Positions 8,178 through 12,218 of a DNA stretch of 64,000 nucleotides are shown piece by piece; position 1 is the stretch's first letter, and each line of letters starts with the position of its first letter. This stretch comes from a virus. Its lineage: Duplodnaviria > Caudoviricetes. The notes below the pieces were generated by a model. It was not told the DNA's origin and did no database searches. It was given only the letters and a program-made list of their open reading frames with translations. The stretch is from the IMG/VR virus record IMGVR_UViG_3300042567_001420; one strand, written 5' to 3'. Made by a program: the position numbers and the translations under genes.

Positions 8178-8197
8178 ACTAGGGCCGAAGCCCTAGT
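8178..8197 (-). terminator. Intrinsic terminator of the hsp20 operon
   Basis: ACTAGGGC-TTCG-GCCCTAGT, a cUUCGg tetraloop hairpin just after the last stop. Confidence 0.8.
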
Positions 8198-8201
8198 GTT
8201 T

Positions 8202-8294
8202 TTATGAACCAATTGAAGGATGCTTGTTCCTACGTGTGGCCAATCGGTGTCGTACTTCATGTACGATTTTAATAAAAGCCTTAATGAATTTCAT
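8202..8294 (-). CDS. 30-aa basic peptide (absent from ORF track)
   Basis: MKFIKAFIKIVHEVRHRLATRRNKHPSIGS; ATGA overlap with the upstream ORF; ends just before the terminator. Confidence 0.5.
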   Translation of the reverse strand: MKFIKAFIKIVHEVRHRLATRRNKHPSIGS

Positions 8295-8476
8295 AATAAT
8301 CCTCTACGTGCTAATACCTGCATTCTATGTTCTAGATCTTTGTAATCTACAGAATCTTTCAAATACATATCAATTTCTTTTTGATATGAAGGAGTAAAGG
8401 CTTTTTCAACCCATGACCAAAAGTCTTTCATTGCAGGGAAATGAACTCCCTCAAATTCTTTTAGATCATTATTCAT
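8291..8476 (-). CDS. Small protein, DUF3563-like
   Basis: YLKDSVDYKDLEHRMQVL resembles the DUF3563 core as recalled. Confidence 0.55.
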   Translation of the reverse strand: MNNDLKEFEGVHFPAMKDFWSWVEKAFTPSYQKEIDMYLKDSVDYKDLEHRMQVLARRGLL

Positions 8477-9000
8477 TATAGGTCTCTATTTTCTACAGGA
8501 TCTTCTGTAAGCAATTGAGGTTTAGATTTCTTTGTAGGCTTTGTGCTTACTTCAGAATCTTTAACTTCAATTTTCTTTGGCTTTTTATGTTCTGGAATAA
8601 TACGCTCTAAGAAAATCTTAAGCATACCATTTAACATGGCAGCATCTTGAACTTCAATATGGTCTTCCAAAGCAAATGTACGAGTGAATGCTCTATTAGC
8701 AATACCCTTGAACAAGAAATTATCTTCTTGCTCTGCACCATTTACATTACCTTTAATAATCATTTTGCCATCGGCAAGTTCAATTTCAATATCCTGTCTG
8801 GCAAAACCAGCAACTGCAACTTCAATAACATAAGTTGTATCGCCAGTTTTCTTAATATTATATGGTGGATAATTTGGAATGCTCTTTGTTAGATCATCAT
8901 GAATCTTAGCCATCTTGCTAAATTGATCGTCAAAGCCTACATATAGTTTATCAAAGTCTTTGAACATATCACGGCCAAATATTTGTGGAACAAATGTCAT
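8476..9000 (-). CDS. hsp20: Small heat-shock protein Hsp20 (IbpA-like)
   Basis: NYPPYNI, IEVAVAGF, FLFKGIANRAFTRTF, NGMLKI alpha-crystallin motifs. Confidence 0.96.
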   Translation of the reverse strand: MTFVPQIFGRDMFKDFDKLYVGFDDQFSKMAKIHDDLTKSIPNYPPYNIKKTGDTTYVIEVAVAGFARQDIEIELADGKMIIKGNVNGAEQEDNFLFKGIANRAFTRTFALEDHIEVQDAAMLNGMLKIFLERIIPEHKKPKKIEVKDSEVSTKPTKKSKPQLLTEDPVENRDL

Positions 9001-9227
9001 TTTGATTCTCCCTTTTTACTTGTTTTACCAGTAATCGAATTGGCAAAAGTCTCTGAGGCAATATTCATTACATCGTTAGCAGACTTAGCAACTTGTTTTG
9101 TAAAGACACGTTGTGCTTCTACAAAATCGACTAGAGGTTTTTGAAGGGAATCTTCCTTGACTGTTTGTTTGAGGAAGTTGATTTTGGCGTCTTGAATTGA
9201 ATCGATAGCCATGTTTGCGTAAAACAT
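8997..9227 (-). CDS. Hypothetical helical protein, first gene of the hsp20 operon
   Basis: 76-aa ORF with AGGAG RBS; overlaps the hsp20 start. Confidence 0.75.
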   Translation of the reverse strand: MFYANMAIDSIQDAKINFLKQTVKEDSLQKPLVDFVEAQRVFTKQVAKSANDVMNIASETFANSITGKTSKKGESK

Positions 9228-9419
9228 ATAGTTCTCCTATTAAGCGAGTTTAAAATTTGCTACCCCGAAGGCATAGCGTTAATCCTGCTTACTGACTACA
9301 GGGGTACCATACGTTGTACCAGCTTTAGACGTTCCCAAGGTAGTGGGACTTAAATTAGTTCGGCTTCTGGTTTATACAGCCCACACCGATTGCTGCGTTT
9401 CCCATCCCGGGGATATTAT
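9228..9419 (-). promoter_or_regulatory. Structured 5' leader ending in a ROSE-like RNA-thermometer hairpin
   Basis: CTCGCT-TAAT-AGGAG (9248-9234) pairs the SD with a bulged G (UCGCU motif). Upstream hairpins include GCTATGCC-TTCG-GGGTAGC, TCCCA/TGGGA, GGTAC/GTACC and CCTG/CAGG. Confidence 0.65.
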
Positions 9420-9427
9420 TATTTATA
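9420..9427 (-). promoter_or_regulatory. T4-type late promoter
   Basis: TATAAATA in the intergenic region after regA. Confidence 0.75.
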
Positions 9428-9431
9428 CAGA

Positions 9432-9863
9432 TTATTCATCTGTAGGTTGTTTTTTCTTACCAATATTATACTTTGTTTGTAAAGACCATTCGCTTTTATC
9501 TTTAAAAGCAATTACTTTGATTTGCGACAATGGTGCTAAATCTGTAAATTTATCAGGATCAATAATTTTTACTAGGCCCCAATCTATTAGCAATTTGGCA
9601 ATTGTATTACGTCTTTGTAAATCGTTCTCTGTTAAATCTGCAGTCTTACCATCAAGAGCAAAAAGCTCTTTAAAATGCACAATGAAATATCTACCTTGCT
9701 TATGTAAAATATGGCAGGATTGATACAGTACTTTATCTTTGCGTGATGCTACACCTATGCGTGTGAGAGTTTCTCTGACTTTCAAAAAATCGTCAGGTTG
9801 TGCCATGGTTACTTCCAGCGGGTTGTATCCAGGATAATCAATGTGAAAAATATCTTCAGCCAT
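9432..9863 (-). CDS. regA: Translational repressor RegA
   Basis: VRETLTRIGVASRK...LYQSCHILHKQGRYFIVHFKELFALDG. Confidence 0.96.
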   Translation of the reverse strand: MAEDIFHIDYPGYNPLEVTMAQPDDFLKVRETLTRIGVASRKDKVLYQSCHILHKQGRYFIVHFKELFALDGKTADLTENDLQRRNTIAKLLIDWGLVKIIDPDKFTDLAPLSQIKVIAFKDKSEWSLQTKYNIGKKKQPTDE

Positions 9864-10296
9864 TACGACCACCTTTTATTAGTTTTGTTCTTAAATAATC
9901 TAATTTTGAGTCGTCGAGAAGAGGGAGTACTTGGCGGGCCTTTTCTGTGCTATATCCATAGTATTCTTTTATTACTTCGATCGATTCAATTTTCTCCGCT
10001 TTGATCCATTTGTTGAATCTTTTACGGGGCCTAATAGTATTTATAAGAAACGAAAACTGCATCTTTTTCTCAAGATGTGGTCGCGAATTCATCTCATTCG
10101 CAGGGATTACTGTGTCATGTCCGTAAGATAGTCCTTTATTAATAATAAATGCGTTATACTGTTTCTCCGACCAATCGTCTACGATTAAATTATCTTTGCT
10201 ATAATGAATAGCATTAATAAAGTCAAAGGGGGAAATTGCAGGAGCCTTATATGGAACTTCTGCTGGTTTTTCCACAGGGGTTCCAAACAAACTCAT
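9856..10296 (-). CDS. 62: Clamp loader small subunit gp62
   Basis: PFDFINAI, YNAFIINKGLS, IKEYYGYSTEKA; synteny with gp44 and regA. Confidence 0.9.
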   Translation of the reverse strand: MSLFGTPVEKPAEVPYKAPAISPFDFINAIHYSKDNLIVDDWSEKQYNAFIINKGLSYGHDTVIPANEMNSRPHLEKKMQFSFLINTIRPRKRFNKWIKAEKIESIEVIKEYYGYSTEKARQVLPLLDDSKLDYLRTKLIKGGRNG

Positions 10297-10580
10297 GATA
10301 GCATCCTTATCAATCCTACCGAATCTATTGTTACCAATAACAGGTAGTTAGCCAGCATGCCAAAAGATTTGCGAGTCCAAGCAGCCCAAGCATACATACC
10401 ACAGCCGACGATCCATATAGGGTAAAGAGAAAGTAAGGGCGGATTGGGAACTGTGACAGCCATGGTAATTGAACACCCAATACTAATAGCCCAAGCAAGC
10501 AACTCAACGCAAAAACGAAAGCGATTAGTAATGTAGTCATCTTTGATCCAATCAAATGTAGGTTTTAATAAGTCATTCAT
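10293..10580 (-). CDS. Small 3-TM membrane protein inserted between gp44 and gp62
   Basis: Three hydrophobic segments; start and stop overlap both neighbours. Confidence 0.7.
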   Translation of the reverse strand: MNDLLKPTFDWIKDDYITNRFRFCVELLAWAISIGCSITMAVTVPNPPLLSLYPIWIVGCGMYAWAAWTRKSFGMLANYLLLVTIDSVGLIRMLS

Positions 10581-11546: not shown

Positions 11547-12218
11547 TTAACGCAGCCAGTTTCGATTGAACAACGAATCTGGATTACTTACAATGTCGGT
11601 AGGGACCCCGACTTTTTCAATCAAATCATTTCTAATGTAGATATTGTTTCCTGTATGCATAACTAAAGTATATCCCTTTTCTTTAGCAACTTCGTTTGTT
11701 GCGGAGAATGTATTACCGCCCGGCAATCCATCTTGTCGTATAGATTCGGGATCTCCATTGCGCCATACAATCCCAGGTGCAATACTACTATTAACTTCGA
11801 TAACTACAATCTTAGGAGAATATTCTTTAAGTGATTCCCACACAGCAAGATCATACGAATCAATATCAATTGATATACATTCAAAATCTTTAGGTATAGG
11901 TGTTCTTTTTAAAATATTATCTAGACTATTTTCGTCTGCGGGATTGTGTGATACAAATGCTTCAATTGGAATAATTTTTTTATAAAATTTAGCTGTATTA
12001 TTTAAATCAGGAATTTTTTCACTTGCACCTTCTACAAACACACCGTGCATACCTTTTTTTACAAGATTGTATGTATTACTATACAGTATACCATCCCATG
12101 CACCAATGTCTACACACCAAGAGGTGTTATAATCAACATCTAACCTATGAAGAATTTCTTCGATAATTCCATCTTCTCCATTTTGAGAATGAACATTTTT
12201 ATTATAATTTCCAAACAT
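11547..12218 (-). CDS. FkbM-like SAM-dependent methyltransferase
   Basis: SQNGEDGII, VDIGAWDG, SIDIDSYD, VIEVN. Confidence 0.7.
   Translation of the reverse strand: MFGNYNKNVHSQNGEDGIIEEILHRLDVDYNTSWCVDIGAWDGILYSNTYNLVKKGMHGVFVEGASEKIPDLNNTAKFYKKIIPIEAFVSHNPADENSLDNILKRTPIPKDFECISIDIDSYDLAVWESLKEYSPKIVVIEVNSSIAPGIVWRNGDPESIRQDGLPGGNTFSATNEVAKEKGYTLVMHTGNNIYIRNDLIEKVGVPTDIVSNPDSLFNRNWLR

Follow-up and report, generated by a model that had tools for sequence, protein, structure and literature searches.

What does a long, structured leader do in front of a small heat-shock gene of a freshwater T4-like phage? On the minus strand of the window (the whole stretch of 64,000 nucleotides that was analysed), the box TATAAATA (9427-9420) is followed by a leader of 192 nt (9419-9228) and by the AUG (9227-9225) of an operon that contains hsp20. 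A sequence-only reading of this DNA had taken the leader for a ROSE-like RNA thermometer, and the elements on which that reading was built, namely TATAAATA, the leader and the string CUCGCU-UAAU-AGGAG-6 nt-AUG, are present on the minus strand as it described them. The comparison reported here suggests that the leader is probably a mosaic, in which a core of the ROSE_3 type that masks the SD sequence (9282-9225) is joined to independent modules upstream. The leader had also been described as a multi-hairpin region of ~190 nt; this description fits the last 58 nt, which form two ROSE-like hairpins, but not the other ~130 nt, which are separate pseudoknotted modules.

The coupled hsp20 operon and its putative promoter

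The minus-strand genes upstream of the operon, as assigned with Pfam and PHROG, are in order the gp44 clamp loader, a 95-aa ORF, gp62 and regA, and this is the order of the T4 replication genes. The closest cultured relatives are Synechococcus myoviruses, to which the window is ~70% identical at the DNA level in the regA/clamp-loader region only; a blastn search of the leader against cultured phages returned a single partial match. The 95-aa ORF between gp44 and gp62 (10293-10580, minus strand) is hydrophobic, has a local GC content of 0.47-0.50 and has no match in Pfam or PHROG. The operon itself and the elements that border it are as follows.

9420-9427, minus strand: putative T4-type late-promoter box TATAAATA, position conserved in relatives
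8997-9227, minus strand: orf76, first gene of the operon, a conserved hypothetical
8476-9000, minus strand: hsp20 (Pfam HSP20, E = 2.7e-16; PHROG 432, E = 1.3e-39)
8291-8476, minus strand: 61-aa ORF, weakly DUF3563-like (Pfam, 21.2 bits against a cut-off of 26.9)
8202-8294, minus strand: 30-aa basic ORF, reading frame kept in relatives
8178-8197, minus strand: stable UUCG hairpin with a perfect 8-bp stem, a few bases past the last ORF

The four genes overlap stop-to-start (ATGA for orf76/hsp20, TAATG for hsp20/61-aa ORF, and ATGA for the 61-aa and 30-aa ORFs), so that one ribosome-binding site can gate all four. The GGAG that belongs to hsp20 itself sits within the 3' end of orf76. The four-gene operon proposed from sequence is therefore borne out, in that the ORFs exist and their overlaps make them a translationally coupled unit. 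The label of the third gene fared less well; its likeness to DUF3563 comes down to a weak Pfam match that falls below the cut-off.

The hairpin at 8178-8197 is the probable 3' end of the operon. It is followed on the minus strand by no clear U-run and then by a TATAAT-like box and a new ribosome-binding site. Its U-run is on the plus strand, where no gene lies nearby. In these respects, the hairpin resembles either a terminator that acts in the opposite direction or an element that stabilises the 3' end.

The late promoter claimed for the operon finds support in the position of its box but not in the box taken alone. Within this AT-rich window, TATAAATA is not enriched (13 copies versus 10.8 expected). 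In relatives, a (N)(A/T)TAAATA box is found 10-14 nt before GGGAUGGGA in 39 of 64 distinct leaders, and TATATAAT occupies the same place in 13; some further relatives have no box at all, and their structured region comes after an upstream ORF. In four metatranscriptome studies of fresh water, there are RNA-library contigs that cover the leader together with the beginning of orf76, one of them matching 9168-9425 with two mismatches. Such contigs give neither transcript start nor strand, and they are weak support. No listed contig bridges regA into the long leader, and missing cover proves nothing. In one X3 contig, 9257 is joined directly to 9450 and the 192 nt between them are missing; we read this contig as a relative with a short leader.

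A second TATAAATA box is present at 7493-7486, 9 nt before the tRNA-Met gene (7477-7404, minus strand), and may be a late promoter that drives this gene.

The ROSE-like core in front of hsp20

Two hairpins and the linker between them make up most of the sequence directly upstream of the start codon.

9259-9277, minus strand: ROSE-like hairpin I, a 5-bp stem with bulged G9272, two C-G pairs and a UUCG loop
9249-9258, minus strand: linker AAAUUUUAAA, whose length and sequence vary in relatives and which is always A/U-rich
9234-9248, minus strand: ROSE-like hairpin II, formed by CUCGCU (9248-9243), the loop UAAU (9242-9239) and AGGAG (9238-9234)

A 6-nt spacer, AACUAU, separates AGGAG from the AUG. 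In hairpin II, CUC pairs with GAG and CU with AG, and G9245 is bulged. This is the pairing that the sequence-only reading had proposed, and ViennaRNA predicts it for the 15-mer at every temperature from 5 to 42 C.

The design of hairpin I was scored as a stem of at least four pairs that carries a bulged G below one or two C-G pairs and is closed by a small loop. It is found in 115 of 117 distinct leaders, where it is built from 58 different stem-arm pairs, compared with 29 of 2340 shuffles (1.2%). In an independent MAFFT alignment, six of the seven pairs of hairpin I change on both sides. Covariation thus backs hairpin I but not hairpin II, whose pairing does not covary in relatives; we therefore infer this pairing from the fact that the arms are complementary and from the way in which they are conserved. 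In the motif scan, both arms were set by the search pattern. In the hsp20-anchored leaders that were compared they are invariant, and the only variant seen among relatives is a C-to-U change that gives a U-G pair (UUCGCU, the group of L053). The loop ranges from 4 to 7 nt (UAAU, UAAUA, UAACA, UAUUUA, UAAUUA and UAUUUUA) between arms that are both fixed. Fixed arms around a variable loop are the pattern that would show if the ribosome holds the 3' arm of the hairpin fixed. The two hairpins have a common design, in which two pairs separate the bulged G from the loop, and the sequence of their tops is conserved beyond the needs of pairing.

Two other candidates for this part of the leader were rejected. 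Hairpin I as an intrinsic terminator was discarded because the U-run is not conserved, and an upstream leader peptide, with its AUG inside GGGAUGGGA or with its end at UAAUAG, was discarded because inspection showed neither frame nor length to be conserved. A model of the core finds one copy in the 64-kb window and no second ROSE-like leader elsewhere in it.

How closely the core resembles known ROSE elements can be judged at several levels. ROSE thermometers are defined by two to four hairpins and by U(U/C)GCU opposite the SD sequence with a bulged G (PMC11182007, PMC3669281). In the phage leader, hairpins I and II stand before the AUG, the last of them holding the SD sequence, and UCGCU (9247-9243) lies opposite AGGAG with a predicted bulge. 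As for position, orf76 comes first in the window and hsp20 second, through the ATGA overlap, whereas among 111 related loci there are 85 in which nothing lies between the core and hsp20. The ROSE_3 model (RF02523) aligns end to end with 9280-9222 (15.7 bits, where the cut-off is 43 bits, and E = 0.18 when 79 nt were searched) and also with the short leader of a marine relative that lies directly on hsp20 (19.2 bits, E = 0.051). What is shared with ROSE_3 is the AUGCC-loop-GGGU top with its bulged G in hairpin I, and ACUCGCU...AGGAG in hairpin II. Targeted searches with ROSE (RF00435) and ROSE_2 (RF01832) gave no match up to E = 10. Rfam returned only tRNA-Met for the whole window at gathering thresholds, and no match at E up to 10 for the 451 nt of 9100-9550. 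When a model of the phage core was run against the E. coli ibpAB region, it gave 12.9 bits (E = 1.6) and 10.7 bits, neither of which is significant; the weaker match is just before ibpB.

The core is like the ROSE_3 element of Pseudomonas ibpA (Krajewski et al. 2013, PMC3669281) in its two hairpins, in the bulged G under two C-G pairs, in the A/U-rich linker and, in most phage relatives, in its place directly before an IbpA-type small heat-shock gene. It differs in that the phage hairpin II lacks the two upper pairs and has its loop directly after the motif; of the flanking G-C pairs described for ROSE_3 (PMC3669281), the lower one is present as C9248-G9234, and the upper G-C and A-U stem is absent. 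In addition, the phage element lies behind a putative late promoter rather than a sigma-32 promoter, and in the window it stands ahead of orf76 and is joined to ~130 nt of pseudoknotted RNA. In E. coli, the leader of ibpA (ROSE_2; PMC10474464) likewise places a ROSE motif opposite the SD sequence of an IbpA-type gene. It is a longer element, however, and no match was obtained in either direction, with ROSE_2 on the phage leader or with the phage-core model on E. coli. Judged by sequence, we call the 3' core a shortened variant that would work like ROSE_3, at a score below that set for membership in the Rfam family. The ROSE identity put forward by the sequence-only reading accordingly holds for the motif, the bulged G, the full-length ROSE_3 alignment and the link to hsp20, but not for the bit score, the upper stem or a match to the other two ROSE families.

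The distribution of the core was followed in 80 loci gathered via orf76, 119 via the exact motif and 80 via Hsp20. The motif scanned, CUCGCUUAAUA(N)GGAG with no deviation allowed, stands directly before hsp20 (85) or orf76 (26) in 111 of the 120 viral matches in IMG/VR, and the identity of Hsp20 among the motif-bearing viral loci drops to 28%. In the hsp20-anchored sample, UCGCU...GGAG precedes hsp20 or orf76 in all 75 of the loci that are untruncated by a contig end. The association of the motif with hsp20 far exceeds chance, and the core is tied to hsp20 across very divergent phages. It is conserved before hsp20 in a very large group of aquatic T4-like phages, marine cyanophage relatives included. 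Cellular genomes (596 Gb) hold at least 121 exact matches to the motif, with none before hsp20 or orf76 among the matches listed; we regard these cellular matches as chance occurrences that give no donor or host.

At L001:1369-2478 (Marine virus AG-345-P14), three extra ORFs lie between regA and hsp20. The leader there is minimal; a CTAAATA box is followed by hairpins I and II, and these directly by hsp20.

That the core precedes orf76 in the window, and not hsp20 itself, had been seen from the sequence, and the comparison gives this arrangement a context; orf76 intervenes in a subset of the loci (26 of 111). Since the core is followed directly by hsp20 in most relatives, orf76 has the look of an insertion that took over a regulated ribosome-binding site. 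The protein has at least 346 relatives, all of them unnamed, and it is predicted to be a two-helix hairpin (AlphaFold model with pLDDT 85 and helices at 2-22 and 26-66). Sequence searches of Pfam, PHROG and the PDB gave no match for it, nor did a comparison of folds, and leads from the Atlas to phasin and PhaR-type proteins are weak. A divergent branch of orf76 (~40% identity) occupies the same position in other phages.

Temperature response and the phage Hsp20

By what mechanism might such a core control the operon? The probable explanation, which we favor, is that the 58 nt at the 3' end (9282-9225) are the phage counterpart of the short ibpA leader with two hairpins that proteobacteria have. 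While hairpin II is closed, the 30S subunit would be unable to bind, and the opening of this single site would gate orf76, hsp20, the 61-aa ORF and the 30-aa ORF together. We infer SD masking in vivo and a response to temperature from the predicted stability of the hairpin. The calculated free energy of hairpin II goes from -4.6 kcal/mol (5 C) through -3.1 (20 C) and -1.4 (37 C) to -0.9 (42 C), and the predicted probability of finding the five SD bases all unpaired is about a hundred times higher at 42 C than at 10 C. With its five pairs, hairpin II would be expected to melt by degrees between 5 and 40 C, as would be apt for a host in cool water. Validated Pseudomonas elements are much more stable, at -15 to -21.5 kcal/mol as whole thermometers (PMC3669281), whereas the phage figure at 37 C, about -1.4 kcal/mol, is for hairpin II alone, and a ribosome might open this hairpin at any temperature. 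In the Pseudomonas thermometers, stability sets both basal expression and induction (PMC3669281). A weak hairpin II would fit a host living at 5-25 C; equally, it may be too weak against the ribosome. Counting against a thermometer is the promoter, as the operon is preceded by a putative late promoter and not by a heat-shock promoter. If the core does work as a thermometer, abundant viruses would tune chaperone synthesis post-transcriptionally, from a late promoter and without the heat-shock sigma factor of the host, and a hairpin that is much weaker than its bacterial counterparts would suggest a low set-point for cool water.

An alternative mechanism is that the two hairpins serve mainly as an operator for the phage Hsp20, so that output would follow protein damage in the infected cell and not temperature directly. 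The precedent is IbpA of E. coli, which binds to the 5' UTR of its own mRNA and keeps translation repressed until it is titrated away by aggregated proteins (PMC10474464). This self-repression needs R93 and an aromatic residue at position 34, and it is conserved in gamma-proteobacteria (PMC10474464). Thermosensing and autorepression coexist in E. coli. The phage Hsp20 shares 41% identity with IbpA from E. coli; it retains equivalents of Y34, R93 and R97, whereas the inactive IbpB has Gln at position 93. The bulged-G design that the two hairpins share points in the same direction, and the strict sequence conservation of both hairpin tops, beyond what pairing needs, would also fit a protein-binding site. 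The Hsp20 of the marine relative, on the other hand, has Asn at position 97. By this analogy, autorepression is a tentative explanation for the core, and one that could coexist with a thermometer.

Thermometers have been described in phages before, namely those of lambda cIII, SP-beta blyA (fourU) and a gut-phage sigma-70 gene (fourU) (PMC11182007, PMC10586365). They are like the hsp20 leader in being cis-acting 5' UTR structures that occlude the ribosome-binding site, but they belong to other classes (an alternative-structure switch and fourU) and control other genes. A 2024 paper (PMC11182007) counts three thermometers in phage genomes, none of which is ROSE-like or on hsp20. In full-text searches of a literature library, no account turned up of ROSE-type elements in phages or in front of a cyanophage hsp20, and the ROSE-like leader of phage hsp20 is, as far as we have seen, new to the literature. 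New in this window are the long pseudoknotted extension, the independence of the double pseudoknot described below, the orf76 insertion with its fourfold coupling and the IbpA-type residues of the phage Hsp20.

Structured modules upstream of the core

The leader stands out from its surroundings in G+C content (0.47-0.48 versus ~0.33 nearby). Its single-sequence folding energy is not unusual (z = -1.32), and the case for structure thus rests on comparison with relatives. Comparison distinguishes the following modules upstream of the core.

9400-9414, minus strand: H0, a hairpin at the 5' end, whose C-run is paired to one or the other G-run within the conserved GGGAUGGGAA
9360-9396, minus strand: PK1, an H-type pseudoknot with S1 GCAGC/GCUGU, S2 UCGGU/GCCGA and an A-rich loop 3
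9333-9348, minus strand: H2, a short hairpin with UCCCA/UGGGA and the conserved loop CUACCU
9284-9331, minus strand: PK2, a double pseudoknot of four helices in ~50 nt, conserved in alignment A1
9331-9329 with 9314-9312, minus strand: helix P2d of PK2
9323-9321 with 9293-9291, minus strand: helix P2a of PK2
9320-9316 with 9307-9303, minus strand: helix P2b of PK2
9302-9298 with 9288-9284, minus strand: helix P2c of PK2

H0 is conserved directly after the promoter box. Its two alternative registers are each possible in most leaders, and in many relatives its loop is GGGA. PK1 is optional, as many relatives are without it. Its topology was found in 35 genuine leaders with many different stem sequences (36 leaders scored at least 12, of which one, L151, is a chance match), compared with 28 of 640 shuffles (4.4%). 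The layout of PK1 is like that of small H-type pseudoknot aptamers, with an S1 of 5-7 bp, a short loop 1 and an A-rich loop 3 such as UAAAAAA; PK1 has no Rfam match, PreQ1 included. Support for H2 as a hairpin, which comes from sequence comparison, is moderate, with 16 distinct arm pairs and a stem of at least 4 bp in 27 of 51 cases versus 19.5% of shuffled flanks. None of H0, PK1, H2 and PK2 has an Rfam match up to E = 10 in searches of 9278-9420, of 9100-9550 and of the region around a tRNA-linked PK2 copy.

As a double pseudoknot, PK2 is so far undescribed, and its covariation is clean. It consists of two adjacent hairpins, the loop of each pairing with an upstream strand. In alignment A1 (39 distinct sequences), 97.4% of cells are paired and ten pairs change on both sides; covariation is 0.556, compared with 0.199 for shuffles and at most 0.09 for slid controls. 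Model R1, built for PK2, gives a single match in the window (65 bits).

One explanation of the long leader is that all 192 nt form one sensor, in which PK1, H2 and PK2 bind a ligand or refold and so control access to the SD sequence. The conserved unpaired nucleotides of PK2 (UAAAG, ACG and GUAA) and of the H2 loop (ACCUU) do suggest tertiary contacts or a binding partner, and when the full leader is folded with nearest-neighbour energies, its SD region pairs with sequence that belongs to PK2. On inspection, however, this long-range pairing is not conserved in relatives. The modules are moreover optional and shuffled, marine leaders and some freshwater ones consist of hairpins I and II only, and PK2 also exists without the ROSE core, in two loci upstream of the promoter box. 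A single sensor is thus very improbable.

PK2 without the core was detected in many viral contigs by a PK2-only pattern, and 18 copies were confirmed with a covariance model (E <= 1e-4). In L433, L436, L414, L417, L402, L405, L484 and L474, it lies 4-5 nt before a tRNA gene or inside a tRNA cluster. Positions of copies in these and other contexts are given below.

L433:5211-5251, minus strand: tRNA-linked PK2
L436:5566-5617, plus strand: tRNA-linked PK2
L414:14105-14145, minus strand: tRNA-linked PK2
L417:5827-5872, plus strand: tRNA-linked PK2
L474:7280-7334: tRNA-linked PK2
L416:6226-6277: PK2 directly before the ribosome-binding site of an unrelated ORF
L418:9861-9914 and 12033-12096: PK2 in the same context
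L420:7241-7290: PK2 in the same context
L438:712-762: PK2 in the same context
L409:4383-4434: PK2 upstream of a TATAAATA box
L456:2838-2889: PK2 upstream of a TATAAATA box

The tRNA-linked PK2 directly follows a sigma-70-like TTGACA/TATAAT promoter and a small GNRA-type hairpin (CUGUU-GGGA/GAGA-AACAG). At L409 and L456, PK2 is upstream of TATAAATA, and it is therefore not always inside the late transcript.

Under the mosaic reading, the upstream ~130 nt would be independent structured modules and no part of the thermometer. Because PK2 also heads tRNA operons and unrelated genes, these modules most likely serve the 5' end of the transcript, in stability, processing or read-through. The simplest reading of the sequence contexts is that PK2 is a portable 5'-leader module that would act on the transcript in one of these ways. 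The leader shows structured RNA modules shuffled among phage transcription units. A broader proposal, which we consider possible but doubtful, is that the ~130 nt are a new portable phage cassette (terminal hairpin, optional H-type pseudoknot and PK2) that is placed behind the promoters of hsp20, tRNA and other units and acts on the transcript. Such a cassette might block decay that depends on the 5' end, like an exoribonuclease-resistant RNA, or it might alternatively modify RNA polymerase, like the put antiterminator RNAs. If that were true, the hsp20 leader would join two independent RNA devices.

The wide use of these modules also bears on a constitutive role for the leader. The mRNA of T4 gene 32 has a stabilising 5' leader with a pseudoknot, which is also an operator for gp32. 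The hsp20 leader is like it in having an H-type pseudoknot near the mRNA 5' end, upstream of an A/U-rich stretch and a ribosome-binding site, although the two are unrelated in sequence. By this model, the hsp20 leader would combine a stable, nuclease-resistant 5' end with a strong ribosome-binding site, and the pairing of CUCGCU with AGGAG would damp translation to a fixed level. The stabilising leader of gene 32 and the very weak hairpin II are in line with this idea, as is the presence of the upstream modules at the head of tRNA operons and other genes, where thermosensing is not expected. Yet the core is tied to hsp20 or orf76 in the 111 of 120 matches given above and is not used for other late genes, and its architecture is common to validated thermometers. 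A constitutive leader is for these reasons unlikely.

PK2 was also considered as T4 rnaC, rnaD or another RNA of the T4 tRNA region, and this was rejected for want of a match (best score, 6.4 bits). A tRNA-linked copy had no blastn match in cultured phages. Near-complete relatives have one copy of PK2, and one contig has two. In the copies without a core, a pseudoknot pair that the model does not encode still covaries (CG in 6, UA in 6, GC in 2, AU in 1 and UG in 1).
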